Below are positions 38,861 through 64,000 of a stretch of DNA of 64,000 bases, one piece after another (the stretch's first letter is position 1; each line of letters opens with the position of its first letter). The position numbers were made by a program, and so were the translations under genes. Origin of the DNA: an uncultured delta proteobacterium (GTDB lineage: Bacteria; Desulfobacterota; Binatia; UBA9968); NCBI GenBank assembly GCA_963745035.1, contig CAVUVW010000021.1:32001-96000 (forward strand). The letters are read 5' to 3'. A model generated the notes under the pieces. The model searched no databases. It had not been told where the DNA came from and was given only the letters and a program-made list of their open reading frames with translations.

Positions 38861-38876
38861 AGCAATGGCTATGCCA
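38861..38876 (-). promoter_or_regulatory. sigma54 -24/-12 promoter of the EAL gene
   Basis: TGGCATAGCCATTGCT. Confidence 0.75.
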
Positions 38877-44308: not shown

Positions 44309-45133
44309 ATGCAGAATAGACTTAAAATCGCGCTGGTTGTCGCGGTGTTTTTTGGTCTCATCGCGGCCTATGGGATCTACAACTTTCTTAGCCAGCGACA
44401 AAGAGAGACGGATTCATTGCGGGCTTTGAATCAAAATATCGTCGTGGCGGCGCAGGACATTCCGGCGGGCACAACCCTGAATGACGAGGCGCTTAAAAAG
44501 GGCATAATCAAGACCACGCCTTGGCCAAAAGCTTCAATACCAGCCGGAGCATTTTCTTCTCCCCAACAAGTTTTTGGTAAAGTGAACCGGGTTAAAATCC
44601 TTGCCAACGAGCCGATTGTGGAGTCTCGTCTTGCAGGCGAGGGAGCCGGTCTTACCGTTCGCTTGGAGGCTGGCAAGCGAGCTTTGGCGTTGCGCGTAGA
44701 CGAGATTGTCGGCGTTAGCGGTTTTATTGTTCCCGACGATCGGGTCGACGTGATTCTCACGACAACGCCCCTAGGCGCCGCGCAAGACGCTAAAATTTCA
44801 AAGATCGTCTTGCAAAATAAGCGGGTTTTATCGGTTGCGCAAAGTACCGAGCAAAAGGAGGGGAAGCCTCAACTCGCGCGTTCTATCACGCTGGAGGTTA
44901 CTCCTGAGGAAGCGGAAAAATTGTCGCTTGCGTCTCAAGAAGGACAGATTGTTTTGGCCCTGCGGGGACTTGGGGACGACGCTCAGTTGACAACGATCGG
45001 GAGCAATAAGCGGGACCTGTTATCTCTCGCGGCGGCACCGACCAAAACCGGCGGGCGCCCAACGCAGGCTCCGCCAGACAAGTATCGGGTGGAGGTCATT
45101 CTAGGCAGCAATCGAAATGTGGTGGAATTCTAA
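44309..45133 (+). CDS. cpaB: Flp pilus assembly protein CpaB/RcpC
   Basis: SAF domain VVAAQDIPAG, GVSGFIVPDDRVDV, LEVTPEEAEKL. Confidence 0.95.
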   Translation: MQNRLKIALVVAVFFGLIAAYGIYNFLSQRQRETDSLRALNQNIVVAAQDIPAGTTLNDEALKKGIIKTTPWPKASIPAGAFSSPQQVFGKVNRVKILANEPIVESRLAGEGAGLTVRLEAGKRALALRVDEIVGVSGFIVPDDRVDVILTTTPLGAAQDAKISKIVLQNKRVLSVAQSTEQKEGKPQLARSITLEVTPEEAEKLSLASQEGQIVLALRGLGDDAQLTTIGSNKRDLLSLAAAPTKTGGRPTQAPPDKYRVEVILGSNRNVVEF

Positions 45134-46678
45134 ATGGGAAGGGGAGAGTTCATGAGACACTGTTGTTTGGTCCGGGGGCGGCTAAATAAGGTAGTCAGTT
45201 TGGCGGCAGTCTGCTTGTGGGCTGCATTGGTCTCCGTAGCAGCAGCACAGCCGCAGGCCGCGCCGGCGATTACCGTCACGGTTAATAAGTCGATGGTATT
45301 TCGTCTCGCTGAGAAAGCCAAGCGCGTCTCGGTTTCGCAGCCGCAGGTAGCCGATGTGCTTGTCGTCGCGCCAAGCCAGTTGCTGATCAACGGTAAGAAC
45401 GTCGGTACCACATCGTTGATTATTTTTGATGAAAAGGGGGAAGTCTCAAACTACGACTTGATCGTGGCACCAGACATCGCTGCCCTGCGCGGCCAGCTAA
45501 GATCGGTGTTTCCCGAGGAGAAGGTTGAAATTTCCACTTCTGGTCCTTCTCTCGTGCTGCGAGGAGAGGTGTCGAACGAGACGGTTTACGACAGAGTGCT
45601 AGAGGTCGCCGCAACCTATCTGCCGCCGAAGCCACCGGCGCAGGTAGCTCCTTCGACGAGTCAGTCGCTCACATTTGGAGCTGCTCCTCAGGCCCAGATT
45701 AAATCCTCTGGCGTAGGATTTGCCGGAGGTGGGAATCTGGCCTTTGAGGAAGAAGGTTCAATAACGGACCCCTATCGTTGGGCCGACAAAAAGCAAATCG
45801 ATGGAATTATCGACCTGCTAGTGATCCGGGAGATGCGGCAAATTGAGCTCGACGTCATCGTCGCCGAAGTCGCGACGACGAAATTGAGAGACGTCGGCTT
45901 TGATATTCTTCAAAGCGGCAGAAATTTCAACAGCGCTTCACTCGTCGGCAGCCAAGCCTTTGGCTTATTACAGCCGGGCTCTAATGTGGACGCAGCGTCT
46001 CCGCTGGGTTTTAATTTACCCGCGACTTCAGGGATTTTCCGCTACGTCAACGGGTCCTATGCTTTAACCACGCTGTACCGAATGCTCCAGAACAAAAACG
46101 TGAGCCAGATTCTCGCGCAACCAAGACTCGTAACCAAGAACGGACGGAGCGCAGGCTTTCTGGCCGGAGGTGAATTTCCGGTTGTAGCCGTAACGGCGAA
46201 TACGTTTGGCGTTCTCTTCAAGCCCTTCGGTGTTCGCCTCGATTTCATTCCCACTTTGACGTGGTCGGATCGTATCGACTTGCGAATATTTCCCGAAGTA
46301 AGTCAAATCAGCTCCACGGTCGTTAACGGTGTTCCTGGCGTCGAGGTTCGACGCACGGTGAGTCGGGTTGAAATGAAAGAGGGGGAGAGCCTGATTATCG
46401 GGGGATTATTGGACCGGCGAATTTCCAAGGACCTGACAAAGTTTCCGGTCTTGGGCGATATCCCCGTTTTGGGCACGCTTTTCAGAAGCACTAAATTCGC
46501 CAACGAAGAGTCGGAGCTGGTATTCGTGATCACGCCGAGAGTCGTCCGCGCGTTCAAGCCGGGCGAGAGACCGCAGCTCCCAGCGATAGAAAAATACGAT
46601 GATCCAGACATCCGTCAGGTACCAGTCCCGGGCGGCGCGGCGGAGAAAAGACCGGCTCCGGGCGCTTCCATGCCGTGA
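45134..46678 (+). CDS. cpaC: Secretin CpaC/RcpA
   Basis: LAQPRL, FLAGGEFP, FGVRLDF, PVLGDIPVLGTLFRS. Confidence 0.95.
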   Translation: MGRGEFMRHCCLVRGRLNKVVSLAAVCLWAALVSVAAAQPQAAPAITVTVNKSMVFRLAEKAKRVSVSQPQVADVLVVAPSQLLINGKNVGTTSLIIFDEKGEVSNYDLIVAPDIAALRGQLRSVFPEEKVEISTSGPSLVLRGEVSNETVYDRVLEVAATYLPPKPPAQVAPSTSQSLTFGAAPQAQIKSSGVGFAGGGNLAFEEEGSITDPYRWADKKQIDGIIDLLVIREMRQIELDVIVAEVATTKLRDVGFDILQSGRNFNSASLVGSQAFGLLQPGSNVDAASPLGFNLPATSGIFRYVNGSYALTTLYRMLQNKNVSQILAQPRLVTKNGRSAGFLAGGEFPVVAVTANTFGVLFKPFGVRLDFIPTLTWSDRIDLRIFPEVSQISSTVVNGVPGVEVRRTVSRVEMKEGESLIIGGLLDRRISKDLTKFPVLGDIPVLGTLFRSTKFANEESELVFVITPRVVRAFKPGERPQLPAIEKYDDPDIRQVPVPGGAAEKRPAPGASMP

Positions 46679-46695
46679 GTAGCCCATAGCATAAC

Positions 46696-47928
46696 TTGCA
46701 TGAAATCATGAAGCTACCTGTCGTTCTAGTCGGAGAAGATAGCCTTGCATTGGCCTCTTTGAGGCAGCAGCTCGAAAGAGAGCCATCCGTTTCGATCGAG
46801 CCGAAAACATACGGTTATGGCGAGGCTTTCGAAGGGTTAAAAACGCGCAACGCTCCGGTTGTTGCTGTCGTGGATATCAATCTCGACCCCGAGCGCGCGT
46901 TCCAGGTCGCGGAGCAGATTAAGTTAAGATTGAATAGTGTGCGATTGGTGATGACTTCGCCGACGGGAGCTCCCGAAACAATCTTACGCGCTATGCGTTC
47001 GGGCGCCGAAGAGTTTTTGACGCAGCCTTTTAATTGGACCGAGTGTCTCAAATCGTTGGATACGATCCGCAAGAAAATCGACGTTCATACCACAAAATCA
47101 GTCGAACGCGGACATATTATCGCTGTTTCTTCGAACAAGGGCGGGGTCGGTTCAACCACTGCGGCAACCAATTTGGCCGCGTGTCTTGTGGCGCAAAATA
47201 GGTCTGTTTGCTTGGTCGATTTGGTCCTCCAGTTTGGTTCCGTGACGAGTTTTCTCAATATTGAGGCCTCCTATACAATTTTAGATTTGGTCAAGAACCT
47301 AAAGCGCATCGATCCCCTCTTTTTGGACGGCTCTCTGGTGAAGCATGCTTCTGGAATCAGGATTCTTGCCGAGCCGTTTTATGCCGAGGACGCGCGGCGT
47401 ATCACCCCTGCCGACATCGACGAGATCCTCGAAGTTTTGGCCCAATCCTTTGACTTTGTCGTCGTTGACACGCCCAAAGAATTTGATGATATGCTCGCCT
47501 TGGTGCTGGATAAATCGAACTTGATCCTCTTCATTACTGAAATGGACGTGCCCTCGCTGAAGAGCGCCCACCGAGCGTTGGAACTGTTTGAGCGCATGGG
47601 AATTTACGACAAGAAGATTCGGTTGATTTTAAACCGCTACGTGAAAAGCAAGTTGATGACGCTGGAGTCGGTGGAGAAGGCATTGGGCGTGAAGGTTTTT
47701 TGGACTTTACCGAACAACTATCCGGTGGCGATTGCAGCGGTCAATCAAGGCTTATCAATAGAAGAATGCGATGCGCGCTCTGATATCGCAAAAAGTTATC
47801 TGGGGTTGACCGAGTCGGTCTTGAGCACCTTCATGTTTTCCGGCGCATCTCGGGCTGATACAGCGGAGGATAAGAGGGCCGGTTTTCTAGGGCGATTGCT
47901 ACCGCCAGTGCGCGGCTTAACCAAGTAA
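46696..47928 (+). CDS. cpaE: CpaE/TadZ (atypical REC + MinD-like domain)
   Basis: AMRSGAEEFL, KGGVGSTT, FDFVVVD. Confidence 0.93.
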   Translation: MHEIMKLPVVLVGEDSLALASLRQQLEREPSVSIEPKTYGYGEAFEGLKTRNAPVVAVVDINLDPERAFQVAEQIKLRLNSVRLVMTSPTGAPETILRAMRSGAEEFLTQPFNWTECLKSLDTIRKKIDVHTTKSVERGHIIAVSSNKGGVGSTTAATNLAACLVAQNRSVCLVDLVLQFGSVTSFLNIEASYTILDLVKNLKRIDPLFLDGSLVKHASGIRILAEPFYAEDARRITPADIDEILEVLAQSFDFVVVDTPKEFDDMLALVLDKSNLILFITEMDVPSLKSAHRALELFERMGIYDKKIRLILNRYVKSKLMTLESVEKALGVKVFWTLPNNYPVAIAAVNQGLSIEECDARSDIAKSYLGLTESVLSTFMFSGASRADTAEDKRAGFLGRLLPPVRGLTK

Positions 47929-47940
47929 AGGGCTAGTGCA

Positions 47941-49422
47941 ATGAAAAATCCATCTTTTGACACCGACAAGGACCGTTGGGAATCCGACAGGAGTGCCGGC
48001 GATGGGCCGCGGGGTCCGTTCCGATCGCTCCAGACAACCAGTCCTGACGTAATTTTGCAGGATCTCAGGCTTCGAATTCACCGCCGCCTTATCGATACGT
48101 TGGATCTCTCCAAGTTGTCCAATTTGGAAATGGAGCGAGTGAGGGTGGAGATCCGCCGCATTCTTGAAGACATGGTCATGGCGGAAGCGATCCCTTTAAG
48201 CCGGTCGGACCGCGACCGCCTCGTCATGGAAGTTCAGCACGAGGTATTTGGCCTCGGACCACTCGAGACTTTAATGAAAGATCCGGAAATCTCGGATATC
48301 CTGGTTAATTCGTCAAGTCAAATCTACGTTGAGCGCTACGGCAAGCTTGAGAAAACCGACGTGCGGTTTCGTGACGACGCCCATTTGATGCAAATTATTG
48401 AGCGCATCGTAACTCGCGTTGGCCGACGCGTGGATGAAAGTTCGCCGATGGTAGACGCCCGACTGTCGGACGGCTCGCGTGTCAACGCGATCATTCCGCC
48501 GCTGGCCCTCGATGGCCCAGTCCTATCGATTCGTCGTTTCGGCGCCGAGCGGTTGACGATCAACGACTTGATTCAGTTCAATTCCATACCGCCGCAAATT
48601 GCCGAAGTCGCCGCTGCCTGCGTCAAATCGCGCCTCAATATGATCGTCTCGGGAGGTACCGGCGCCGGCAAAACGACGCTGCTCAATTGCTTGTCGAATT
48701 ATATTCCCGAAAACGAACGAATCGTCACCATTGAAGACTCGGCTGAGTTAAAGCTGCAGCAAGAGCATGTAGTGCGGCTGGAAACCCGACCTCCGAACAT
48801 CGAGGGGCAGGGCTCGGTGACGGCCCGGGATTTGGTTCGAAATGCGCTCCGCATGAGACCTGATCGAATCGTTATCGGCGAGGTGCGCGGTGGCGAGGCG
48901 CTCGACATGATGCAGGCCATGAACACCGGCCATGACGGGTCGATCAGCACCATTCACGCCAATAGCGCCCGTGATGCGCTTTCCCGGCTCGAAACCATGA
49001 TGCTTATGGCGGGTATCAACTTGCCGGAGCGGGCTCTGCGCGAGCAAGCCGCCTCGGCGATTGATGTCATTGTTCAGTTGACCAGATTGACTGACGGCAG
49101 CAGGAAAGTCGTCGAATTTTCCGAAGTCACCGGCATGGAAGGCAATACGATCACAACGCAGACCATTTTCAAATTTGAACAGCGCGGCATCGAGAACGGC
49201 AAGGTAGTCGGTGAGTTCGTTGCCACCGGAGTGATGCCATCGTTTATGGATCGACTGGAGCGTTATGGCTTCCGGATCCCCAACAGCCATTTTCTGCCGG
49301 TAACGATGGGCGCGACAAGAGAAGAGCGTTATGAGCCTGCTCATCATCAGCATATTTGCATTTTTGTCTGCCGTATCGCTGATTGTTATCCTGTTCATGC
49401 TGCCGATGGCCGTGCAGGATAG
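47941..49422 (+). CDS. cpaF: Pilus assembly ATPase CpaF/TadA (3' end uncertain)
   Basis: [32 protein letters not shown]. Confidence 0.97.
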
Positions 49423-50305
49423 TCCGCAGGCGCGAATCAAGCGCCGTCTCACGACAATTGGGCGTTTAGACCGCGCATCGAGAGCCGAAGTGCAGAATAT
49501 TTTGAAAACTGCGGTTTACAGCGAAGTTCCGTGGATCCATAATATTTTGTCGCGCATCAAATTTGTCCAGAAGATCGATCTGTTGCTGGAACGGGGTAAT
49601 CTCGACATGACGCCCGGCGTGTTCCTGCTGTGCTCAATTGGGGCCGCCGGCGTCACCTTTTTTCTGGCTTCGATTATCGGTCAACCCACGTCGATAAGTT
49701 TTATTTTTGCTTTGATCGCGCTGTGCTGTCCCTATATTTATTTGCAATTCGTGATCTGGAAACGGCTTAGAAAATTTCTTGAGCAATTTCCCGATGGTCT
49801 GGACATGATCAGCCAGAGCCTTCAAGCCGGATTGGGATTGACCCAGTCGATGGTCTTTGTCGCCAAAGAAATGCCTGATCCATTGGGCACCGAATTTTCG
49901 GTTTTTATCGAAGAGGTGAATTTAGGTCTACCCCTTGCCGAAGCCCTGAAAAAGTTCGAGGAGCGCATGAACCTGCCTGAAGTGCGGCTATTCAATACCG
50001 CGCTTATGGTGCAGCGCGAAGTCGGCGGCAGTCTTGCCGAGCTGCTGAACAAACTGTCGAATATTATTCGCGATCGCTTCCGCATAGAGCGGTTGATCAA
50101 GAGCTTGACCGCGCAGAACCGCATCAGCGCTTGGACGGTCTGCTCCGTTCCGCCATTTCTCGCTGTGTTCATGTTCATGCGGGAGCCCGTGATGATGAAC
50201 AAAATGATGCAGCATCCTGTCGGACGGGGCATGCTGGCGGCAGCGCTGGTTCTGGAAGTCGTCGGCATCCTGGTATTCCGCAAGATCATCAAGATCAATA
50301 TTTAG
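49331..50305 (+). CDS. tadB: TadB platform protein
   Basis: QFPDGLD...[13 protein letters not shown]. Confidence 0.93.
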
Positions 50306-50313
50306 GGAACGCG

Positions 50314-51243
50314 ATGGCACTTTTAATTGCGATCGGATTTTTTGGCCTGATATCGGCGGTCGTTTATTTTCTGCTCGCCGCCCGAGCACCGGTCTCCGAC
50401 GACGCTATCCAGAGACGCCTGGAAAATATCGGCCTTCAGACCGAATCAAGAACGCAGTTCAAGCTCCACGAAGAGGAGGAGCTAACCTTTTGGGAGCGCG
50501 TCGCGAATTTCTTTTTCGGCGACCGCGAGCTTCCCGAGAGATTCAACATGGCCAGCCAGCGCTTGCACCAGGCAGGTTACCGCGGCAATCGAGCCATCCG
50601 AATCTTTTGGGGTCTTAGGATTTTTCTGTGCATTGCGTTCGGTTTCGCCGGGTTGTTGTTGGCGCTGACCAAGAATGCATCGATGTCCGATTTGTTCCTG
50701 CTCGTCGGGGCTGGTTCCATTACCGGTTACATGTTGCCCATGCTCACGGTGTTCCGTAAATCGAGAGCCAGGGTACGCGAAATGCGCAATACTCTGCCGG
50801 ATACGCTTGATTTGATCGTGGTTTGCGTGGAGGCCGGCATGGGCGTCGATGCTGCTCTGAATCGCGTCGGCCGGGAGCAGAACTCACAAGGTATGGCGCT
50901 AGGCGAAGAACTCGTTCTCGCTACCCAAGAAATGCAGGCAGGAGCGGTTCGCAAGGATGCCTTGCTGCGGCTCGCTGAGAGAGTCGGCATCGACGAGTTT
51001 AGGGCCTTGGTAACGTTTCTCACGCAAACCGAGGAAATGGGCGGCAGCATCGCCCGCTCGCTGCGAGTTTATGCCGAGACTATGCGAGACAAGCGCAGCC
51101 AGGCGGCCGAAGAAGCGGCCCGCAAGACCGTTATCAAGTTGATTTTTCCTCTGGTGTTTTTTATTCTTCCGGCGATTTTTATCATTCTCCTGGGCCCTCC
51201 GGGCTTGGGAATTATGGAAATGCTTTCCGATCCTTTGCGTTAG
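50314..51243 (+). CDS. tadC: TadC platform protein
   Basis: LPDTLDLIVVCVEAG, AEEAARKTVIKLIFPL. Confidence 0.93.
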   Translation: MALLIAIGFFGLISAVVYFLLAARAPVSDDAIQRRLENIGLQTESRTQFKLHEEEELTFWERVANFFFGDRELPERFNMASQRLHQAGYRGNRAIRIFWGLRIFLCIAFGFAGLLLALTKNASMSDLFLLVGAGSITGYMLPMLTVFRKSRARVREMRNTLPDTLDLIVVCVEAGMGVDAALNRVGREQNSQGMALGEELVLATQEMQAGAVRKDALLRLAERVGIDEFRALVTFLTQTEEMGGSIARSLRVYAETMRDKRSQAAEEAARKTVIKLIFPLVFFILPAIFIILLGPPGLGIMEMLSDPLR

Positions 51244-51254
51244 GAACTGAAGTC

Positions 51255-51653
51255 GTGCCGATCATCAATCTGACCAAGGAAACCTGGCTTGCCACAAAGG
51301 TGCGCAAGGCAGATAATTTTCTCACTCGCTTGGTTGGGTTGCTAAAGCGAACGCATCTCGGGCCGGAAGAAGCTCTGTGGCTGATGCCGAGCAAGGGAAT
51401 TCATACCATCGGAATGAAGTTTCCCATCGATGTCGTGTTTTTGACGAAGAGGAATGAAGTTATCGGTTTGATTTCCGGACTGGCGCCTTATCGGATCAGC
51501 GCGGTTCATCTACGGGGCTACAGCGTCATCGAGTTGCCCAACGGCACAATTAAAAAATCCCACACCGAACTTGGCGACAAACTCGAAATCTCCTTAGCGG
51601 AAGTGTCTGAAATGGACGATCTCAAAGACACGCGCTTGAGTCAGATCGGATAG
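51255..51653 (+). CDS. DUF192 family protein
   Basis: ADNFLTRLVGLL, IHTIGMKFPIDVVFL, VIELPNG. Confidence 0.88.
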   Translation: MPIINLTKETWLATKVRKADNFLTRLVGLLKRTHLGPEEALWLMPSKGIHTIGMKFPIDVVFLTKRNEVIGLISGLAPYRISAVHLRGYSVIELPNGTIKKSHTELGDKLEISLAEVSEMDDLKDTRLSQIG

Positions 51654-51695
51654 TTTGCCTCAATGGCGCAAATCTGTTAAGCAACGTCCGCAGGT

Positions 51696-52208
51696 TTGAT
51701 CATGGGCAAAAAAAATCCACGTAGGTGGTCGATTTCTTTGCAGAAATGTCCTTGTTTTGCCAATAAGGGGCAAGCAGCGGTTGAGTTTACCCTCGTTTTT
51801 ATTCTCCTTGTAATCATCGCTTGGATCCCTGCTGACTTTGGGTTGGCATTCTACACCGGCCAAATAGCTCAGAACGCCGTCCGAGAGGGTGCTAGGATTG
51901 CTGCCGCCGATCCGACACTAGCGGCAACTAACACCACATGTGGACCTCCCCTCTCCTCCTGTTTCGGTTTTGGTAATATTTTTAATGAAACTGCAGTCCG
52001 TTTGCCTTCGGCGCTAATGGGCTCATCTACTCAAATTGCGGTCAGTTACCCGGCGGCTGGTTCATCAGCTTGCAACCAGTTGGTGAGTGTCAGCGTCTCC
52101 GGCCAGTATCCGTTTTTTTTCTACAAGATACTTCGCTTTATCGGAATCGATGTAAACATTCCAACCATACAGCGCTCAAGCATTATGAGGTGGGAGCACA
52201 CATGCTGA
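51696..52208 (+). CDS. tadE: TadE-like minor pilin
   Basis: KG|QAAVEF, NAVREGAR. Confidence 0.9.
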   Translation: MIMGKKNPRRWSISLQKCPCFANKGQAAVEFTLVFILLVIIAWIPADFGLAFYTGQIAQNAVREGARIAAADPTLAATNTTCGPPLSSCFGFGNIFNETAVRLPSALMGSSTQIAVSYPAAGSSACNQLVSVSVSGQYPFFFYKILRFIGIDVNIPTIQRSSIMRWEHTC

Positions 52209-52696
52209 GGACTGGTTTTCTGCCGAAAGTCTTAAACCGGAAGGGACAGAGCATTGTCGAGTTGGCATTAATCACTCCTCTACTTTTGGTGGCCTTGTAC
52301 GTCCCGGCCGATTTCGGCGTAGCCTTTTCAGTCGCACATCTAACCCAGAATGCCGTGCGAGAAGCAGCCCGCAGAGGAGCGTCTACCGATCCCTTTGATA
52401 TTGCCGCAAGTACCGCTATTAAGAACGACGCTCTTATTAAAATCCCGGCGTGGTTCGGAGGCTCGAAAACCGCAACGGTTACTTTTCATGCAGACGGAGC
52501 GGCGGATTGCGCCCGGTTTGTCCAGGTCACCGGGGGAGGAACCTACGATTACTTTCTTTATAGGGTCATGTACCTTTTTGGTTTTTCCCCTCCGGACAAT
52601 CAGCAAATTATACGCACAGCGCGTATGCGTTATGCCGCTCAGCCGGCTACATACCATGCACCCTGTAGCGACACTCCGACGATTACCTCGCCTTAG
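52202..52696 (+). CDS. Second TadE/TadF-like minor pilin
   Basis: KG|QSIVEL, NAVREAAR. Confidence 0.9.
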   Translation: MLRTGFLPKVLNRKGQSIVELALITPLLLVALYVPADFGVAFSVAHLTQNAVREAARRGASTDPFDIAASTAIKNDALIKIPAWFGGSKTATVTFHADGAADCARFVQVTGGGTYDYFLYRVMYLFGFSPPDNQQIIRTARMRYAAQPATYHAPCSDTPTITSP

Positions 52697-52720
52697 CGGA
52701 GTTTGTTAAGGAGATTTGAA

Positions 52721-53736
52721 ATGCATTCGGTAAGTAACGATAAGGGCTCGGTGCTGGTGTTCATGACTCTCATGATCGTGTTGTTGATGATCATGGTAGG
52801 AATGGGGCTGGATACCGGTCAACTCACCTATAGCCGAGCTACGGGGCAAGCGGCCGTTGACGCTGCCGCTCTGTCGGCTGTTTCCGCGCTACCCAGCCGC
52901 ATTGCAGCAGACGTCGAAACCCGAGCAGCCGCCTTTGCTTCGAACAATAATTACGTCGACAGTCCCAATAATCTGATCAAAGCCGCAAATGTCAGCTATA
53001 TTCAGTATGATTTCACCACGAACCAGATCACCAATTATTCCGCACCTATCGCAACCGCAAATGGGGTAAGGGTTGCTTTGGAGCAAGCGACTAACAGCGC
53101 GATAGCGACTCCCGCTTTTCTCACGCCGCTGTTCAAGCTATTTGGGGGCTCGGCTCCGGGAGCTAATAATGTAAACGTTAGCGCGGTTTCGGTTATAACA
53201 TGCGAAGCCGTCTATCCCAATTGCTTTATGGTCGGGCTAGTGCCCGCAAAACGGGGTCGAGTATCTTCGCCAAATACAGATGCAACACCCGGATCAGAAA
53301 GCTGACGGTAACGAGAACTCTTGTTGGACAACCTTTTTCGATTGTTCTTCGGGCGCACCGGACATTAAAGCTGGGTTCACGACGGCGGGAAGCTGCTCGG
53401 GTAGCGGATTCGCAGGGAATCTCGCTCTGGGCAGTATGATCTGCCAGAATAAAGGGCAGGTGAACAGTGTTTTGCAAGCAGCTAAGGATTTCTTCGCGGC
53501 TAACCCAAACCGTTGGTGGGTCGTTCCGGTTCTATCGGGCGGCGGCGAATTGTGATCCAGACAACCCGACAGGAATTGTGAACTTTGCCAAAATTTGGCC
53601 AATATCCGTCGAAACTACAGGAAATCCTAAGTATATAGAAGCGAAGGTAGAGTGCGGTCCGGAACTCATAAACGATGTTGCAACGAGTCTGTGTCATTCT
53701 CACAGGCTGGTGCGGGAGCCTGGCAAGGGATATTGA
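52721..53736 (+). CDS. tadG: TadG-like Cys-rich pilus protein (indels near 53200-53240 and 53548)
   Basis: KG|SVLVF, GLDTG, QAAVDAAAL; continues in ORFs 53280-53555 and 53467-53736. Confidence 0.8.
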
Positions 53737-56489: not shown

Positions 56490-56615
56490 TAGAAGCCCGG
56501 CCTGCCGGCGATCGCTTCGCGCAACTTATGAATGTGCTGGCGTGCTTCTGCTTCTGCAGCACAGGCTGACTATACTGTCTTCACGAGCAGAATTTGCGAT
56601 GCTGGCCGGAAGAAC

Positions 56616-56650
56616 AAAAAGCCGGGTGTTCGTGAAACACCCGGCTTTTT
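56616..56650. terminator. Bidirectional intrinsic terminator
   Basis: AAAAAGCCGGGTGTT...AACACCCGGCTTTTT. Confidence 0.9.
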
Positions 56651-56733
56651 GAGGGAGTGATCGAGAATGGTCGATCAGAGTTCGCCCGGATCTCCGCTAA
56701 AACTATGCGCAGCGGGCTAATCCGTAAATGAGA

Positions 56734-58159
56734 CTATATCTCGGGAATCGTGAGTTTCATGCCGATAAAGATATAATCTGGGTTTTTGACCTGGTCCTTG
56801 TTGGCTTCGTAAATTTTGTCCCACTTGAGTCCTGAGTTGTAGAATTGCTGGGCGATGCGCGCCAGGGTGTCGCCGGGCTTGACGACGTAGTGCTGAGGCG
56901 CGCCTTTATCGGCTTTGGCTGCGGGCGCCATCGCCTTCGCCGTGACAACCGGGACTTGTCTGGATACCGCTTGGATTTTCTCTTCCGTGGTGGCCGGTTT
57001 CGCTTTTGTGTCCGCTGCCGGCGCTTTGGCGCTGGCGGGGACCGCCACGGGGTCGGCCTTCGCCGCGGCTTTCGTCGCCGGTGCGCTCGCCACCGGCTCC
57101 GTCTTCGTGGCGGCTTTCGCGACTGCCGCGGATTTGTAGAGACGATCGATGAAGCCCGATCCATCCAACTCCTTCACGATGCTTGCATCAATGAACTGTT
57201 CCGGACGAGCCGCGCGCGCGGTCGGATCCTTGGCGCCGAATTCGCGCAGGATGATTTGCACGCCTTTTTGCGTCGGATAAGGCTTTTCCGGGATGAGGGT
57301 CTGAACGATCGACTCATAGGTGTCGTCCAACACTTCCTTGTCGTCCGTGCGCAGGTATTTCGCGAGCACTTCAAGGGTTTCTCTGCGATGGGTCTTGGCG
57401 TAATGAATGCCTTCGATGTATGCGCGCAGAAAATCGCGCGCCAGATCCGGCTTCGCTTTGAGCAGGGCGCGGCTGGTGGCCACGCTGGTGTGCTGGTACT
57501 CCAAGCCGAGCATTTGCAAGTCGGCGAGCATGGGATAGCCGAGCTTCTTCGCTCGCAGCGAGGTCGGCGCCGAGAGCATCGCGCCATGGATCTTTCCGGC
57601 TTCCATCGCCGCGAGGAGAGCCGGCACGTTGCCCAACTGGAGAATCGAGACTTCCTTATCGGCGTCCAAGCCGTATTTATCCAAGGCGTAGCGCATGGCG
57701 AAGTCGGTCGCGGAACCGTAACGCGTCACGCCCACGGACTTGTTCTTGAATTGGTCGGGTCGGGTGATGGTTTTGTCGGTGAATAGCTGAAATGTGAGCG
57801 TGTTCACGATGCCGGCGATCATCACCGTGTCCGCGCCGCGCAGATTGCTCTGAATAACCGCCGGTCCGGCCAGCGTGGCGAAGCTGATATCCCCCGCCAC
57901 CAGCGCTTGCGCCGTAGTCGTGCCGGACTCGATCAAGATCACCTGAACGTCCAGCCCATATCTTGCGAAAGAAACCTTTGTCCACGGTGACCCATAGAGC
58001 GGCCATGTTGCCGGATATGGAGCTGAAGGCAACGTTGATCTTTTGCAGCGGTCGATCGGCGGCGCGGGCCGTCGAGGGGCTCAAGACCAGCGTTGCGCCC
58101 ACGACTGTGGCGAAGGCTATGGCGACGCGCCACAGCCTTGTTGTGAGATGATGGATCAT
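56734..58159 (-). CDS. SsuA/NMT1-like binding protein fused to an Ala/Lys/Pro linker and C-terminal LysM (indel near 57970)
   Basis: Signal peptide and AFSSISG in ORF 57677-58159; GVTRYGS...PEQFID, linker, YVVKPGDTLARIA...NPDYIFIGMKLTIP in ORF 56734-58032. Confidence 0.88.
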
Positions 58160-58195
58160 CGATGGTTCTCCTTTTTTTGTTTGCGTTCGAGACGG

Positions 58196-58990
58196 TCATT
58201 CGCGGTTGAGTCGCACCATCGCTGCTTTCAAGCTTGCCCGCATTCTTTCAAGCGAGCGTCCCAACTCGCCGACCTCGTCGTTGGTTTGAATCGAAACCGC
58301 CGTGTCGAGCCGCCCGCGGCTGATGTCGTCCGCGACCGCTTTCAAATCCAGAATCGGCCGGATCGTTTTCGCCGCGAGCATGATCGACAAGCACACGCCC
58401 AACGCCAGGCAGGCGGCGATCAAGCCGATGATCGGCAGCAGGGTCGAGCGCACTTCGCTGCCCACGGTTTCCGCCCACAGGCCGACGCGCGCGGTACCGA
58501 GCTGGCCGTCGAGAAGCTGTGAGCGAGTCTCGTAAACCGACTTGCCGCGCAGGCGGGTGACACGCGCGGGCGCGGTGGTTCCGCCGGCGTCTTTGAGCTC
58601 AACCGGAAACGGCTGCACGCTGCTGCCGAGGATTTCGCCGCGCGGGTCCTGAATAAAAGCGTAGGCGACGCCGTCGAGGCGCCCGTATTTGGCGATCAGC
58701 GCGTCGAGCTCCAGCGCGCTCTTGCGCGAGACAAAACTGGCGGCGGCGTCGGCCAAGTTGGTGGCGATGGCGCTGGCGCGCAGGTCGACCTGCTTTTGCA
58801 GCGCATGCGCGGTGAAATAGTAGACGATGCCGATCACCAACAAGCCCAAGACCAAGATCAAACCGCTGAAGGTCACGCTGATTTTCCATCGGAGCCCGCC
58901 GCCCCGCCAGTTGATACTGACCGGCTTGGCGATTTTGGAGCTTTGCGCGGACGCAGTTTCCTGAGGCATCGATGATTTCCTCCCAAGCAA
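58196..58990 (-). CDS. Two-TM membrane sensor ending in a HAMP domain, no output domain
   Basis: IRPILDL...ISRGRLD...NDEVGELGRSLERMRASL, then stop. Confidence 0.85.
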   Translation of the reverse strand: MLGRKSSMPQETASAQSSKIAKPVSINWRGGGLRWKISVTFSGLILVLGLLVIGIVYYFTAHALQKQVDLRASAIATNLADAAASFVSRKSALELDALIAKYGRLDGVAYAFIQDPRGEILGSSVQPFPVELKDAGGTTAPARVTRLRGKSVYETRSQLLDGQLGTARVGLWAETVGSEVRSTLLPIIGLIAACLALGVCLSIMLAAKTIRPILDLKAVADDISRGRLDTAVSIQTNDEVGELGRSLERMRASLKAAMVRLNRE

Positions 58991-59004
58991 TCTTGTTCGG
59001 GGAT

Positions 59005-59799
59005 TTAGAAGCGCTTAAAGTTCGAGATCTCCTGAAACATCGATTCTTCGAACTTGTTTTTCAACTTGCCGTCGCCGATTTCACGGCCGATCAGCATGAT
59101 GAGCTCGTCGAGCTTGGCTTCCGGTAGACTGTCCCGCGATTCGCCCAGAGCTTCGATCTGATCGCGCAGCACCAGCGGCGCCATGGGACCGATCACTTCG
59201 GTCAGAATGCCGGTCACGCGGTCCAAAAGCGCCGTTGGCACGAGCTCGGCAGCCGGTCTGGAAACCGGCGCCGCGAGCTCCACGAGACCGGATTTATGCA
59301 GATTGTAAATCACCTTGGCGGTGTATGCGAAGGGAATGCGCAGGAGCTCGGCCACTTCCTGAACAGTCCGTGTGCCGTCGAGTTTGCTCAGAACCCGCCA
59401 GCCGACGTTAGGCACGGTCACCGGGCCGGTATGGTCTTCGGCCAGGTCGGCGATTTTGAAAACTGCCTTGCCGGTGGGAATCAAGTCGAGGATGATCTCC
59501 CACTCGCGCGTCATCGCTTTGACTTCGGCGAGAATCTCCTCCGCCGACTTGTGCACCGTCGCCGCGGGAGCCGCGCCGTTGGGCTGGAGATTGAACGTGC
59601 CCTCGCCCCAGGTCACGGGATACAGCAGGGCCTTTTCTCCCTCGCCGATCGGGCAGGTGGCGTGCACGATCCTGCCGTCGGTGAGAAATACTTCGACGGT
59701 TTCTTTGCCGTGGGCAAGCTTCAACACGCCCGATTTCTTGCCGGTCGTGGCGAGCAGCAGCAGATCGCTCAAGCTGATCTGAGAAAGATTGCCTTGCAT
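59005..59799 (-). CDS. DUF4388 (PATAN-like) domain protein
   Basis: MQGNLSQISLSDLL...KSGVLKL...DGRIVHA...WGEGTF; wHTH-like middle; helical C-terminus with IGPMA. Confidence 0.85.
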   Translation of the reverse strand: MQGNLSQISLSDLLLLATTGKKSGVLKLAHGKETVEVFLTDGRIVHATCPIGEGEKALLYPVTWGEGTFNLQPNGAAPAATVHKSAEEILAEVKAMTREWEIILDLIPTGKAVFKIADLAEDHTGPVTVPNVGWRVLSKLDGTRTVQEVAELLRIPFAYTAKVIYNLHKSGLVELAAPVSRPAAELVPTALLDRVTGILTEVIGPMAPLVLRDQIEALGESRDSLPEAKLDELIMLIGREIGDGKLKNKFEESMFQEISNFKRF

Positions 59800-59825
59800 G
59801 GTTCAGGTCCGCGGAAAGCAGCTTC

Positions 59826-60152
59826 CTAGCGGTCTTCGAGCGCGCGCCGCGTGTCTTTCCCGGCTTGAGTTTTTTTCGTGAGGTCGGCGAACTCGTCGTG
59901 ACCGTTCAGCGTGACTTTGAGCGTTTTGATCACCGCCAGGCTTTTGCTGATTCCGACCATCTGCTCCAAGGTGGATTTGATCTGGCTTTGCAGCAGCTCG
60001 ACTTCCTCGATGGAAATCCCCTGAAGCTGGGACTGCAGCTCGTCATAGAGCCGCGTGATGCTGTCGATCTGGCCGAGAGATTCGGCTTTTTGCGTGATGT
60101 CTTCATACAACCGCGAAATATCTTCCGTGAGGTTTTGCAAATCGTTTTTCAT
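59826..60152 (-). CDS. Small coiled-coil hypothetical protein
   Basis: Heptad-like Leu/Ile pattern rich in Q/E; operon position. Confidence 0.8.
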   Translation of the reverse strand: MKNDLQNLTEDISRLYEDITQKAESLGQIDSITRLYDELQSQLQGISIEEVELLQSQIKSTLEQMVGISKSLAVIKTLKVTLNGHDEFADLTKKTQAGKDTRRALEDR

Positions 60153-60172
60153 CGCTTTCCCCCGTTTTTTTT

Positions 60173-61504
60173 CTAGTTCTTCCGTGATGGATTTTTCGAC
60201 TTGGCATCTATCGTCGGTTCCTGTACACCGGCTTTCACGGGGGCCGGAGGATTGGACGAGGACGCCTTGAAAAAATAGATTCCTCCCAGCAACAACCCCA
60301 ATGCCGCCGCCGCCGCGATCGCGCTGGTTTTCGTGTTCAGCGATTGTCGATGCGAGTAAAGATCAACCGCGCCGTAGTCCTTGATGATACTTTTCAGCTG
60401 GCGGTCGATTTCGCCGCGCGCTCTGACGTTCGGCAACGACTGTTCGAAAGCCGGCGCGGGGGTTTCTTCTTCCGGCGCGGGAAGCGCCAACAGGCTGTCG
60501 GCGATGGGTTCCACAAACGCCGGCTCCGCGGGCGTTATCCCAAAGGGCGCCGCTTCCCGCCGCGCCACCACTGCCGGGACCAGGTTGAGCGACGACGCGC
60601 GATCCGGTATCGCGTCGATTTCCGGTGTAACGGTGGATTCCCGGAAAGCGTCTTGCGTAGGGTTTGTTTGGGGCGCAGCTGTGTCGGCCGCCGGCGCGGT
60701 GGAAAGAACAAACTCACCGTAGCTGTCGATGAGATCGCTGAGCAGCCGCTGGTCGAAATGGGTATTCTCCGCAGGCTCCTTGCCTTTCTTCTTGGCGGCG
60801 CCGGAGCTATCCGCCTGCTGCGGAGCTTGATGGCCGCGTTGCCCGATCGCGGATGCTTCTTCGAGCTTCAGATCGGCGAACTCGTAGCGGTCTTTTTTTT
60901 GAGCTCGCTCCAGCCGCGGATTCGCGACGTTCGCGGACTCTTTAGCGATGATGGTAACTTCGACCGGCGCGGGTTTGTTCGAGGCGTCGTTCTCGCTTGG
61001 AATCGGCAGCGGCTCCTCGGACCGAAACACGCGGGGCAGCGCTATGATCGATGGCGCATCCGGCATGTTGATTTGCTTTGTTCCGGTGTTCGGAAATTCG
61101 AAGGACACCGACTCTGCGCTCGCTTGAGCGGCTTTCAACAGGCGGTGCATGCGAATCAATTTTCCGGTCTGAACAATGGCCCGAAGCTGAGGATGTCTTT
61201 CCAAGTTATCGGGATCGATGACGTCGAGATCGACTTCGGGCTGCGAGCCTATCGCGGCGCTCGCGTCGCCCAATGCGTCTTTGAGCTTCGCCAGCGCGTT
61301 CAGGCGCCCTTGCAATTCTCCTAGACCCCGGATCAGGTCGGCGGCTTTGGCATGCGCCCGGCTCACCTCCTCTACCGAGAAGTCGTCTAGCCGCTGCTGC
61401 AATCCTTGGATAGAACCGAGCACCTTGCCGAAACCGCTCGCCGGCGATGGTGAATTCTCAGGTGCGGCATCGTCTGGCATTTTTCGTTGTTGAGCGGAAA
61501 GCAT
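60173..61504 (-). CDS. Hypothetical protein, mostly disordered, with a C-terminal TM anchor
   Basis: N-terminal coiled coil, Pro/Ala/Glu-rich linkers, AAAAALGLLLGGIYFF; start 61504 or 61480 given the promoter position. Confidence 0.75.
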   Translation of the reverse strand: MLSAQQRKMPDDAAPENSPSPASGFGKVLGSIQGLQQRLDDFSVEEVSRAHAKAADLIRGLGELQGRLNALAKLKDALGDASAAIGSQPEVDLDVIDPDNLERHPQLRAIVQTGKLIRMHRLLKAAQASAESVSFEFPNTGTKQINMPDAPSIIALPRVFRSEEPLPIPSENDASNKPAPVEVTIIAKESANVANPRLERAQKKDRYEFADLKLEEASAIGQRGHQAPQQADSSGAAKKKGKEPAENTHFDQRLLSDLIDSYGEFVLSTAPAADTAAPQTNPTQDAFRESTVTPEIDAIPDRASSLNLVPAVVARREAAPFGITPAEPAFVEPIADSLLALPAPEEETPAPAFEQSLPNVRARGEIDRQLKSIIKDYGAVDLYSHRQSLNTKTSAIAAAAALGLLLGGIYFFKASSSNPPAPVKAGVQEPTIDAKSKNPSRKN

Positions 61505-61564
61505 GTGCTTGCTTGCCCCTACTCTGAACGTTTGTGTCGGGGCTGGAACACCCGTAAGCAACTT

Positions 61565-61580
61565 AGCAAAACGGTTGCCA
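61565..61580 (-). promoter_or_regulatory. sigma54 -24/-12 promoter
   Basis: TGGCAACCGTTTTGCT. Confidence 0.75.
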
Positions 61581-61737: not shown

Positions 61738-62490
61738 CTAGCGGGGCGAGAGAACTAGGAGCTGGCGACCCACGTCCAAGCCGAAACGATAGCGGCCGAG
61801 AAAATCCATGCCGAGCAATCCTTCGTAGCGCGGATCCCGGGAGAAGTCATGGATGACGACCGGCATATCGTTGATTTCCGCTCCGCCTACTTTTAAGGAG
61901 TCGAAGTCGCGCAACGGCAACGTTGACCGCGCCGCCGACAGTATGAACGACGGCGATTGCCGATCGGGCGCAGCGACAGCAAGCCGGCAATGCGGCGAGA
62001 TAGCACCGTGTTCGTTGCGCCGGTGTCGAGTAGCAGATTGGCCGAGATGCTGCGATTGAGGGTGACGGAAACAATCGTCGAGCGCCCGGTCGAAAGCACC
62101 GGGATATTGATCGAGCCGTGCGGCGCTGCCGTCGAAGAAACGCTGGGGATCGTGACCGCCGTTGTCGCGGGCTCCGGCGGCAATGATTTGAAAAAACTCT
62201 CGACTTTTTTCGCTTGTTCGGCGCCGGCCTGCTTGATCCAGCCGACCACGCCGCTTCGGTTTTTGACGAGAAACCATTTGATGCCGCCGGCACCCTGCGT
62301 TTCGGCGATGGGAATTGCGTGCTCGCCGGCGTCCAGCGTGCCGATGGGCGAAGCGCTCTCGTCCGCCGCGGTGTACATCGGAATAGCGCGCGCAGACACC
62401 GGGCGCGGATCAATTTCGTCGCCCGCGCTCCACGCCTGCGTAAGCGCCGCCAGCGTCAAGCCGAAAACTGCGGCTGCCGCGGCGCGATAG
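61738..62490 (-). CDS. Exported SH3-like + retropepsin-like aspartyl protease (indel near 61958; start unclear)
   Basis: WFLVKNRSGVVGWI; LLLDTGAT; EGLLGMDFLGRY. Confidence 0.8.
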
Positions 62491-63793
62491 GCCCGGTGGT
62501 ACGCTCAGGTCGCCAGAGCAGAATTTTTCCAGCTTACGGTAAAGCGTGCGCGTGGAGATGCCGAGCGCCTCCGCGGCTTTGGCCTTGTTTCCATGAGTCT
62601 GTCGAAGCGCTTCCTCGATAACGCTGCGCTCGCCCTCCTCGATATTGCGGATCGCTCTCGTGCCGATTTCCTCGCGCCGTCCGGTCGCGTAGTGCTGCAA
62701 GTTCATGGGAAGGTCGCTGATAGTAATGTAATCGCCGTCCGAAACCATCACGGCGCTTTCGATAACACTCTGCAGCTCGCGGATGTTTCCCGGCCACGGA
62801 TAATCGAGGAACAGCGCTTTGGCCGAGCTGGTGAGCTTTTTGAGCGGCTTTTGATATTGGCCGCAGGCTTGATACACGAAATTCGCGATCAGCAGAATCA
62901 TGTCTTCTCTGCGCTCGCGCAGCGCCGGCAGCATGATGCGCGCGCTATTCAAGCGAAAGTAGAGGTCCTTGCGAAAGCCCGTGCCGCTGGATCGCCTCTT
63001 CGAGCTTCTTTGTTGGTGGCGGCGATGATGCGCACGTCGCTGGTTTTAACGGCTCGACTCGCCGACTCGGTAGTATTGGCGCGTTTCGAGAAAACGCAGA
63101 AGCTTTAGCTGGATCGCCGGAGCCAAGTCGCCGATCTCGTCCAAAAAGAGCGTGCCGCCTTCGGCCGCCTCGATCAATCCTTTCTTGTTTCGGTCGGCGC
63201 CCGTAAACGCGCCTTTCACATAGCCGAACAGCTCGCTTTCGACGAGAGTCTCGGGAATCGCCGTCATGTTGCAGCCGACGAAGGGTTTATCGGCGCGCGG
63301 GCCACGGGCATGAATGTACTGCGCCATCACTTCCTTGCCCGTGCCGGTCTCGCCGGTGATCAACACGGTGATATCGTGCATGGCGTAACGATTGGCGAGG
63401 TTTACCACTTCGTGAAACAGCGGGGTTTCGCCGATCATCACCGGCGCTTTGATGCGCATGTGGATGATTGGTTTCCGGCGCAGCATATGGCGGCGTGGCC
63501 GAACAGGCCGTACAGATCCCTGCAGGTGAAGCGGGTCGTAGCAGATCAGCGCGAGATGCGCCGACTTGGCGCGCAGACGATCGGTAAAGTCGTTCCAGCC
63601 CTGGCCGTGGCACAAGGTCAGGTCGGCGAAAATGACTTTTTGTTGCTCGGCGGGGAACGCCGCCAGAACTCGCTCGGCTTCTTCGACCGAGCGGCTGACG
63701 TGAACCGAGCAGTCGCGCGCCTCGGCGAGTTTTGAAATGCCGTTCAGAGGAGCGTCAGTCGGGATGGATGATCAGCGCCAGGGGTTTTAGCAT
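62410..63793 (-). CDS. sigma54-dependent enhancer-binding protein with atypical REC-like N-terminus (several indels; 3' end uncertain)
   Basis: [38 protein letters not shown], Fis-type [23 protein letters not shown]. Confidence 0.9.
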
Positions 63794-63799
63794 CGAACG

Positions 63800-64000
63800 T
63801 CACTCTGGAGCCGGCGAGCTGGGTAGGATCACCATGTTTTCGAGGGAATCGGCGAGCAATTGACGCGAAATCTGCGGCGCTGTGCCGAGATAGTTGCACG
63901 CCGCGATCACGTGCTCGGCAATAAACTTGGGATGAAATCCCGCGAACGGAATTTTGTGCTTGAGATAAAATGTATTGAATAAATAGGCCATGATCTCTTC
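63800..64000 (-). CDS. C-terminal end of a gene entering from outside the window, possibly an AAA-type ATPase lid region
   Basis: ...YLFNTFYLKHKIPFAGFHPKFIAEHVIAACNYLG...; open to the window edge. Confidence 0.5.
   Translation of the reverse strand, partial: EEIMAYLFNTFYLKHKIPFAGFHPKFIAEHVIAACNYLGTAPQISRQLLADSLENMVILPSSPAPE

Follow-up and report, generated by a model that had tools for sequence, protein, structure and literature searches.

Af1503 is a two-transmembrane receptor with HAMP as its only cytoplasmic part, which yielded the earliest HAMP structure along with many of those that followed and over a span of twenty years has provided the structural model for HAMP signalling. In the sections of PMC4834066 devoted to it, the protein is described as lacking an effector domain and its signalling target as not known; the same sections report that Af1503-like receptors are often genomically coupled to Af1502-like STAC proteins of 60-90 residues and that Af1502-type members of the STAC family share an LGPx(x)A motif, while Af1502 itself remained a singleton in its authors' sequence searches. 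STAC domains are also described, in the relevant parts of PMC13022988, PMC5715377, PMC9100948 and PMC7096432, from the SLC5-STAC-histidine kinase transceptors CbrA and CrbS, and the STAC bundle of CbrA is depicted in the preprint among these (PMC13022988) as docking on the cytoplasmic face of the membrane domain. Here we describe a five-gene operon (g1 to g5) from an uncultured bacterium of the Binatia, located in a stretch of 64,000 nucleotides (GenBank assembly GCA_963745035.1, contig CAVUVW010000021.1, positions 32,001 to 96,000; referred to below as the window), which encodes an Af1503-like receptor next to a protein ending in a STAC-like domain.

The operon probably encodes a module for transmembrane signalling without phosphorylation, of the Af1503/Af1502 type, in which the state of the HAMP domain of g4 would be read by docking of the STAC-like domain of g3, passed to the PATAN domain of the same protein and possibly directed at the adjacent Tad pilus. 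A preliminary description of the DNA had proposed kinase-free signalling by protein contact for an uncharacterised operon. This proposal gains a concrete basis from the STAC-like end of g3 and the Af1503-like g4, while a ligand supply by the LysM-tethered protein, a scaffold role of g1 and g2 and the Tad target are what we infer; the attribute "uncharacterised" needs qualifying, as pairing of such receptors with STAC proteins is described for archaea in the corresponding sections of PMC4834066. The source assembly consists of 28 contigs with a completeness of 92.6% and represents a genome of 7.4 Mb.

A receptor ending with its HAMP domain

Hydropathy places the transmembrane segments of g4 at residues 33-65 and 179-214, and the region between them matches sCache_3_2 with 26.7 bits, just under the cut-off of 28.4, and with 39-43 bits in the paralogues. 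The Pfam match for HAMP covers residues 205-255 of 264, so that the protein ends nine residues past it, and the start of g5 lies 36 nt beyond the end of the gene. Pfam finds no HisKA, HATPase_c or MCPsignal domain after HAMP in g4 or in the other four products, and the NCBIfam kinase models align with the HAMP stretch only, at scores far below their cut-offs. In agreement with the preliminary description, kinase, methyl-accepting chemotaxis protein (MCP), permease and ABC ATPase domains are all missing from g1 to g5 according to Pfam. That g4 might be a truncated kinase or MCP is ruled out by the common end point of its family, all 13 aligned orthologues and paralogues ending 0-4 residues after the shared RLxRE of the same HAMP helix, and by 25 further HAMP-terminal genes elsewhere in the phylum.

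HAMP is the best-conserved part of g4. With a 13-member profile, the HAMP domain of Af1503 accounts for the 16 highest-ranking of 26 PDB rows (E 1.7e-14 for the best), an order favoured by the over-representation of Af1503 among solved HAMP structures, and is followed by a rhodopsin-chemotaxis chimera, HtrII, PcaY and Tsr (E 4.9e-9 to 1e-5). As judged from these sequence comparisons, g4 resembles Af1503 in being a receptor with HAMP as its sole cytoplasmic domain. When g4 was used as query against 300 genomes of the phylum, long kinase- or MCP-sized open reading frames (ORFs) were the top matches and no full-length orthologue appeared outside the genus; the HAMP-only relatives described below are seen only by anchoring on the C-terminal domain of the partner. 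The genome contains a third HAMP-terminal protein of 390 aa (G000:C13:700977-701681; locus L027 8942-10114; HAMP at 322-369), which has no STAC-like gene beside it and is encoded between a binding-protein gene and glycine-reductase genes of the GrdB type.

A STAC-like domain fused to PATAN and a winged helix

The N-terminal part of g3 is a clear DUF4388 (PATAN) domain (PF14332, residues 2-101, 62.4 bits at a cut-off of 25), the sole copy in the genome, and Pfam gives no Response_reg match that would indicate a REC domain. An AlphaFold2 model based on a 26-row alignment reaches a mean predicted local distance difference test (pLDDT) of 86.7. Compared as a whole with the PDB by Foldseek, it gave no match at E <= 0.001, and its further domains became clear only in a second look with VIA. 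The winged helix (~106-180) is closest to NPRL2/NPRL3 of GATOR1 (Z 9.1-9.3), ahead of winged helices of the MarR, IclR and MntR type (Z 6-7), and g3 shows a weak match to DUF742 (20.4 bits, cut-off 27).

The modelled C-terminal part forms a bundle of four helices (189-203, 207-217, 227-240 and 244-263), and residues 188-261 are aligned by VIA over the entire 69-residue Af1502 (5a1q_A; residues 0-68) with an rmsd (root mean square deviation) of 2.7 A over 69 residues, 17% identity and a Z of 8.0, which by the tool's own warning is within the range that helical bundles reach by chance. Foldseek compares the bundle with Af1502 at prob 1.00 and TMt 0.72, and Af1502 alone is listed as a fold match over the whole of this domain, next to two weaker fragments of adenylosuccinate lyase (Z 5.7-5.8). 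A GPxA motif (G204, P205, A207) between helices 1 and 2 is invariant in 26 sequences and nearly invariant in 30, and corresponds to the LGPx(x)A motif by which STAC is defined. Because the fold match, the invariant GPxA and the reported coupling of STAC proteins to receptors agree, the predicted bundle is regarded as Af1502/STAC-like. A ComFB domain was also considered, since PATAN-ComFB fusions exist, and was set aside for want of a Pfam ComFB match, although the whole-model search barely tested this region. Precomputed annotations assign PF26309 to homologues of g3.

Conservation of the pair in the Binatia

A scan of one genome per species with a single pattern from a 10-row alignment reached Binatia-type records only and returned 33 loci, titled mostly as metagenome-assembled genomes of Candidatus Binatia or "Deltaproteobacteria", 26 of which are orthologous (g3 at least 67% identical). 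The conserved gene order anticipated in the preliminary description is borne out by these loci: g4 follows g3 in 24/24 orthologous loci with downstream sequence, and a gene for a substrate-binding protein (SBP) with LysM follows g4 in 23/23; one locus (L044) is cut by a contig end and holds no more than the final 75 codons of g3. Within the genus, the order activator-[protease]-g1-g2-g3-g4-g5 is found in 10/10 loci (9/9 without L021, which belongs to the unpublished genome G005). Full-length g3 orthologues occur in 14 of 24 same-genus genomes, many of which are incomplete, and 16 genomes from two further families of the order yielded none. One same-genus genome contains a tandem second g3-g4-g5 copy together with genes for a DsbA-like and a 541-aa membrane protein (L015, G014:C10, 5544-14073).

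Spread of the C-terminal domain and its HAMP partner

The family of the g3 C-terminal domain is small, with 317 of 1.84 billion representatives at E <= 0.001. Fused domains were scanned in 83 of 150 listed representatives, the 67 short ones being left out, and the domain, mostly C-terminal, is joined to DUF4388 (6), ExeA-like AAA_22 ATPases (7), proteins of the Wzc type with a bacterial tyrosine kinase (BY-kinase) (14), Ser/Thr kinases (2, one with PilM_2), Phage_ABA_S (2) and a weakly matching HATPase_c (1); sub-threshold coiled-coil matches only were obtained for 13 representatives, and no family for 38.

The domain is carried by 40 of 300 other genomes of the phylum, and in 25 of the 29 loci returned from them its gene is followed by a complete HAMP-terminal ORF on the same strand, the distance ranging from -86 to +183 nt. 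The HAMP domain is recognised by Pfam in 23 of these 25 proteins, whose N-terminal parts are of the Cache type (dCache, sCache_2), Tll0287-like or zinc ribbons; the zinc ribbon was found in L091 and, among loci lacking the GTPase gene, in L069, L085 and L089, with no match in L072 or L075. The domain-bearing protein contains DUF4388 in 18/29 loci and is a short protein (154-180 aa) of winged helix and C-terminal domain in 7/29, four of which (L072, L075, L079, L091) have a Ras-like GTPase gene two genes upstream. A second module order is apparent in L072, L075 and L091, consisting of a Ras-like GTPase, a protein of ~230 aa, the short winged-helix and STAC-like protein and a HAMP-only receptor. 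PATAN-type loci show a gene of ~120 aa before the PATAN-STAC gene, which looks roadblock-like by eye and has no Pfam match. The MglA/MglB partners that the preliminary description had suggested looking for did not turn up in the source genome with the queries used: Roadblock PF03259 has no match at the 92.6% completeness reached, and neither have three GTPase and two roadblock-like tblastn queries from related loci.

The source genome itself contains a related arrangement on contig C16, where three genes stand in a tight row: one for a 442-aa AAA_22 ATPase with the same C-terminal domain (TIGR03015, XrtA/PEP-CTERM-associated ATPase, 231 bits, E 1.5e-68, below cut-off), one for a HAMP-only paralogue of g4 (43% identity) and one for an SBP-LysM paralogue of g5 (52% identity). 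None of the several hundred other NMT1-type genes in the genome exceeds 43% identity to g5. This trio recurs in L059, and the pair alone in L060-L062. In L062, the pair of ATPase and HAMP-only genes is embedded in an exopolysaccharide locus, with the gene for a GNVR chain-length protein on one side and that for a BY-kinase-type ATPase on the other; the locus also encodes a PAS kinase, a sigma-54 response regulator, Poly_export, a sugar transferase and FemAB-like proteins. Two Wzc-type chain-length/tyrosine-kinase proteins of the source genome, encoded in exopolysaccharide loci, likewise end in the STAC-like domain (G000:C13:664026-664241 in L028; C12:32903-33145 in L025), and no HAMP-only gene was seen adjacent to either.

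Layout of the operon and the remaining gene products

The five co-oriented ORFs are separated by spacers of 20, 26, 14 and 36 nt according to the ORF list (Table 1), and the single sigma-54 site, the narrow gaps and the downstream terminator noted in the preliminary description are all present.

Table 1. Coordinates of the operon and of neighbouring features in the window.
Feature	Position	Strand	Description
g1	60173..61504	-	443 aa; N-terminal helical region, low-complexity middle, one C-terminal transmembrane segment (393-414)
g2	59826..60152	-	108 aa, one long helix
g3	59005..59799	-	264 aa; PATAN/DUF4388 (1-~105), winged helix (~106-180), STAC-like four-helix bundle (188-261)
g3 STAC-like C-terminal domain	59017..59238	-	Residues 188-261; GPxA motif
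g4	58196..58990	-	264 aa; transmembrane segment 1, periplasmic sCache, transmembrane segment 2, HAMP; Af1503-like
g5	56734..58159	-	Signal peptide, NMT1/SsuA-type binding domain, linker, LysM (56743-56889); 1-base insertion at 57962
Sigma-54 -24/-12 element TGGCAACCGTTTTGCT	61565..61580	-	Read in sequence
Intrinsic terminator hairpin, operon end	56615..56651	-	Sequence and folding
Sigma-54 enhancer-binding protein gene	62410..63796	-	Sigma54_activat, AAA_lid_14, HTH_8; split frames here
SH3_3 and retropepsin-like aspartyl protease gene	61738..62459	-	Between activator and promoter; split in window
483-aa ATPase gene, 3' end	63800..64000	-	MshE-related c-di-GMP-binding N-terminus; remainder beyond window
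Tad/Flp pilus locus	44309..53305	+	Pfam: RcpC, secretin, TadZ, TadA, TadB, TadC, TadE x2, TadG

Neither g1 nor g2 belongs to a Pfam or NCBIfam family. The ORF of g1 is open up to TTG 61561, with ATG 61504 further in, and the latter is most likely the start, because the TTG lies beside the promoter; the one transmembrane segment recognised by hydropathy is counted from this ATG, and conservation in relatives is confined to the N- and C-terminal parts (27-43% identity). The most conserved protein of the operon is g2, with a mean column identity of 86% among 12 orthologues, and AlphaFold2 models it as one long helix that starts at residue 2 and extends to ~85 or 97, with a pLDDT above 89 up to about residue 80.

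For g5, Pfam indicates NMT1/NMT1_2 and LysM, preceded by an N-terminal signal peptide as seen from hydropathy, and the linker between the binding domain and LysM consists of about 90 residues rich in Ala, Pro and Lys. Among the LysM chains to which the LysM domain shows similarity is that of the secretin-associated TsaP. In the window, the gene is broken into a signal-peptide ORF (57677-58159) and a second ORF (56734-58032) in different frames, while relatives have an intact gene for ~475-490 aa. The frameshift is a 1-base assembly insertion, because contigs from two other DNA sequencing runs (X3 and X6, from two studies) have one base fewer at 57962, which restores a single frame; the same contigs are also one base shorter in the A-run at 58172. 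The activator gene upstream has about three frame breaks within 100 nt (62950-63050), and the protease gene falls into two frames. Both genes are intact in relatives (426 aa for the activator, ~319 aa for the protease), and the breaks are probably assembly indel errors like that at 57962. The expansion of one SBP family in the source genome is extreme: tblastn with the g5 binding domain detects several hundred NMT1/SsuA-type genes (e.g., on contigs C13, C14, C16, C19 and C21), of which only g5 and its C16 paralogue carry LysM.

Promoter, upstream genes and expression

The sigma-54 element TGGCAACCGTTTTGCT has GG at -24 and GC at -12 at the correct spacing, and an enhancer-binding protein gene lies directly upstream. 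Two matches to a relaxed -24/-12 pattern occur in the whole window versus 0.75 expected, a number reached in 16 of 100 shuffles, so that the count alone is not significant; what counts is the conservation of the element (TGGCA-N6-TTGC, mostly TGGCAAC-N4-TTTGCT) 5' of g1 in 22/22 related loci examined. The activator gene is directly upstream in 22/22 loci with enough sequence, its N-terminal region showing no Response_reg match in Pfam, and from this arrangement the operon is presumably expressed from the sigma-54 promoter via the adjacent activator. The SH3_3 and retropepsin-like protease gene is present in 16/22 related loci. The 483-aa ATPase, which together with the activator precedes the operon in all 22 loci with enough upstream sequence (2801-4252 in L029, the locus of the window contig, G000:C21), matches NCBIfam NF053729 (MshE-related, cyclic di-GMP-binding) in its N-terminus with 56.2 bits at a cut-off of 38, besides a weak AAA_16 match, and may link cyclic di-GMP to operon expression. 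The only other sigma-54-like match of the window, TGGCATAGCCATTGC (38862-38876, minus strand), is located ~110 nt upstream of a GGDEF-EAL gene (37399-38754).

The terminator hairpin reaches -27 kcal/mol in folding calculations (z -6.0, 0/200 shuffles as good) and is followed by a U tract; it was seen by folding, a consensus terminator scan not listing it. Contigs from the RNA library of one soil run (X15) fall on parts of g1 to g4, and one of 477 nt spans the g2/g1 junction; none falls on g5 and, by the 31-letter rule applied, none bridges g3 and g4.

Discussion

In the mechanism that we favour, g4 would be a dimeric two-transmembrane receptor whose periplasmic Cache domain senses a cue directly or via g5, an SBP tethered to peptidoglycan by LysM that would serve as co-receptor. 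The cytoplasmic part of g4, a HAMP four-helix bundle and nothing else, would change its state, and the STAC-like bundle of g3 would dock on HAMP or on the membrane-proximal face of g4, thereby coupling the receptor state to the PATAN domain and the winged helix. These may in turn contact a cellular machine, the first candidate being the motor or platform of the Tad pilus, because PATAN of PixE from Synechocystis binds PilB1 and PilC according to the relevant part of a preprint (bioRxiv 10.1101/2021.06.11.447907). The long helix g2 and the tail-anchored membrane protein g1 may be accessory scaffold components bridging or anchoring the complex, and the sigma-54 promoter would be driven by the adjacent activator, itself encoded beside the cyclic di-GMP-binding ATPase.

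The proposed contact was modelled as a complex of two copies of g4 200-264 with g3 184-264 and scored 0.42 (runs 0.42, 0.50 and 0.42; best of three controls 0.01), which passes a mark reached by 116/157 solved complexes and 2/215 mismatched pairs, a pass at or below 0.60 being weak. At least 83% of contacts are common to the runs, and the partner pLDDT is at least 76. Because the gene pairing gives a strong prior, the prediction may be taken as modest support for docking.

The Tad locus is convergent with the operon, from which it is separated by genes for a polytopic membrane protein of 541 aa and a DsbA-like protein, and is followed by REC-GGDEF, histidine kinase and GGDEF-EAL genes. Tad genes lie on the same side of the operon in 10 related loci. 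In a distant locus (L054), counterparts of g3 (55% identity) and g4 (53%) form a pair that lacks g1, g2 and g5 and adjoins homologues of TadZ (54%), the REC-GGDEF protein (72%) and the GGDEF-EAL protein (53%). The 541-aa protein (54864-56489 in the window) has ~10-12 hydrophobic segments and no Pfam or NCBIfam family, and in most related loci its gene likewise stands between operon and DsbA-like gene.

Several observations weigh against this reading. The VIA score of the STAC-like bundle is one that helical bundles can reach by chance, and a 30-member profile, which places GPMA of g3 on GPIA of Af1502 and ranks Af1502 second of 177,635 PDB sequences, does so at an E of 0.65, which is not significant. 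The complex prediction passes only weakly. The link to the Tad pilus appears as one of gene neighbourhood, and Tad ATPases differ from PilB1, the demonstrated partner of PATAN. The SBP-LysM gene accompanies the pair in Binatia-type loci only and is thus no general part of the system, and two Binatia loci (L057 and L058) contain the gene for PATAN and C-terminal domain without a HAMP gene beside it. A HAMP gene downstream is also missing from four of the 29 phylum loci, among which the locus ends in L066, L067 and L076 have REC-DUF4388 as the next gene, and in L079 no HAMP was found after the short STAC-like protein. Finally, the RNA-library contigs are weak evidence of expression and no proof of transcription or of an operon.

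A different view of the same genes would take them for a structural tether, in which the LysM protein, the two-transmembrane protein and the cytoplasmic partner form a trans-envelope scaffold that positions or assembles the Tad secretin or a polysaccharide exporter without any ligand switching, in the manner of ExeA/ExeB (GspA/GspB). The ExeA-like ATPase and LysM protein of the C16 trio, the position of the L062 pair within an export locus, the Wzc-type proteins ending in the same domain, two of them in this genome, and the likeness of the g5 LysM to that of TsaP all agree with this view. We nevertheless consider it unlikely, as Cache and HAMP are modules of signal input and conversion, and the best-conserved part of g4 would be needless in a passive tether; moreover, the pair occurs outside the Binatia without the LysM protein and with sensors as different as dCache, sCache_2, Tll0287-like domains and zinc ribbons, which points to varied inputs.

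It is improbable that g3 is a membrane-controlled transcription factor, whose winged helix would bind DNA and which the receptor would hold or release via the STAC contact, gene regulation being the output. The MarR, IclR and MntR-type matches of the winged helix and the weak DUF742 match would be in line with such a function, but its best matches, NPRL2/NPRL3, do not bind DNA, the operon already has its own sigma-54 activator, and the corresponding section of the Synechocystis study argues against DNA-binding PATAN regulators and shows membrane localisation (bioRxiv 10.1101/2021.06.11.447907). A module tuning a solute transporter encoded elsewhere, with g5 as substrate sensor, would correspond to the function first proposed for STAC, which was named after its link to SLC5 transporters, and would be compatible with the location of Af1503-like receptors near transport genes, as reported in sections of PMC4834066, and with the membership of g5 in the SsuA/NMT1 family with its several hundred paralogues. 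However, permease and ABC ATPase genes are absent from the operon and from the conserved neighbourhood of related loci, and the C-terminal domain is fused to PATAN, export ATPases, BY-kinases and Ser/Thr kinases instead of transporters, which leaves transport regulation very improbable.

If the operon is indeed a signalling module of the Af1503/Af1502 type, an Af1503-type receptor is found here paired with a STAC-like domain that comes joined to effectors of recognisable type (PATAN, export ATPases and tyrosine kinases), and the question how HAMP receptors without output domain function becomes open to direct binding and genetic tests. The uncultured soil Binatia and many relatives in the phylum may possess a kinase-free route for the control of pili and exopolysaccharide, and so of attachment, and a function-level lead is obtained for DUF4388 and for the small unnamed family of the C-terminal domain. 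Only tentatively do we extend this to the idea that the STAC-like domain might be a general plug linking output-less HAMP receptors without phosphorylation to varied machines, namely via PATAN to pili or polarity, via XrtA-type ATPases and Wzc-type tyrosine kinases to polysaccharide export, and via Ser/Thr kinases and Ras-like GTPases to other switches. Besides two-component systems and chemoreceptors, bacteria would then have a third widespread class of transmembrane signalling, and the native output of the Af1503 family would be revealed.

Comparison with known systems

Receptor/STAC coupling in archaea and STAC domains in SLC5 kinases are known from the sections cited of PMC4834066 and PMC13022988, respectively. 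A literature search found no joint mention of "STAC domain" with PATAN or DUF4388, although the original STAC paper (Korycinski et al., 2015) may mention bacterial forms, and PATAN, MglA and HAMP were met together only in a survey of the Ras superfamily (PMC4316618, in the part concerned). The latter covers the conservons CvnA-D and MglA/MglB modules, in which genes for small adaptor proteins likewise accompany that of a HAMP membrane sensor. The winged helix of g3 bears a weak resemblance to DUF742/CvnC, and the Ras-like GTPase gene found upstream in 4/29 phylum loci is accompanied by a HAMP-only receptor in three of these four (not in L079); in contrast, CvnA retains a histidine-kinase module, and the source genome yielded no Roadblock/MglA-like gene with the queries used. 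The PatA-type PATAN-REC proteins PixE, PixG and LsiR of Synechocystis, as treated in the relevant part of bioRxiv 10.1101/2021.06.11.447907, share with g3 a PATAN/DUF4388 output that acts by binding and a link to type IV-related pili. Their input is a phosphorylated receiver, whereas g3 has no REC domain and would be addressed by STAC contact, and the neighbouring pilus is of the Tad type.

LuxP-LuxQ and TorT-TorS are binding-protein-dependent sensors, and the operon resembles them in having the gene of a periplasmic SBP, a likely ligand-presenting co-receptor, beside that of a membrane sensor; unlike in these systems, g5 appears to be fixed to peptidoglycan by its C-terminal LysM via the long linker, and the sensor has no kinase. 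The operon also differs from an ABC uptake system, as no permease or ATPase genes occur beside g5, either in the operon or in the conserved flanks.

In CbrA and CrbS, the STAC domain lies beneath a membrane domain, whose conformation it presumably relays to cytoplasmic signalling domains, a role comparable to that proposed here. The STAC domain of CbrA is an internal linker from transporter to kinase, whereas the STAC-like domain described here forms the C-terminus of g3, a soluble protein in its own right, and the membrane partner is a HAMP receptor without a kinase. No SLC5 transporter domain was found in the five genes or their neighbours, and g3 and g4 fit the stand-alone, receptor-coupled STAC class and not the SLC5-fused one. 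The closest counterpart is Af1503/Af1502, which likewise consists of a two-transmembrane receptor with HAMP as its sole cytoplasmic part and, encoded by the adjacent gene, a four-helix bundle with GPxA. Af1502, however, is a stand-alone protein of 68 aa, while the bundle described here terminates a 264-aa PATAN and winged-helix protein, and the gene order is partner before receptor instead of receptor before partner. Further differences are the bacterial host, the Cache sensor, the added SBP-LysM gene and two small genes, and an operon without a transporter of the MgtE type.

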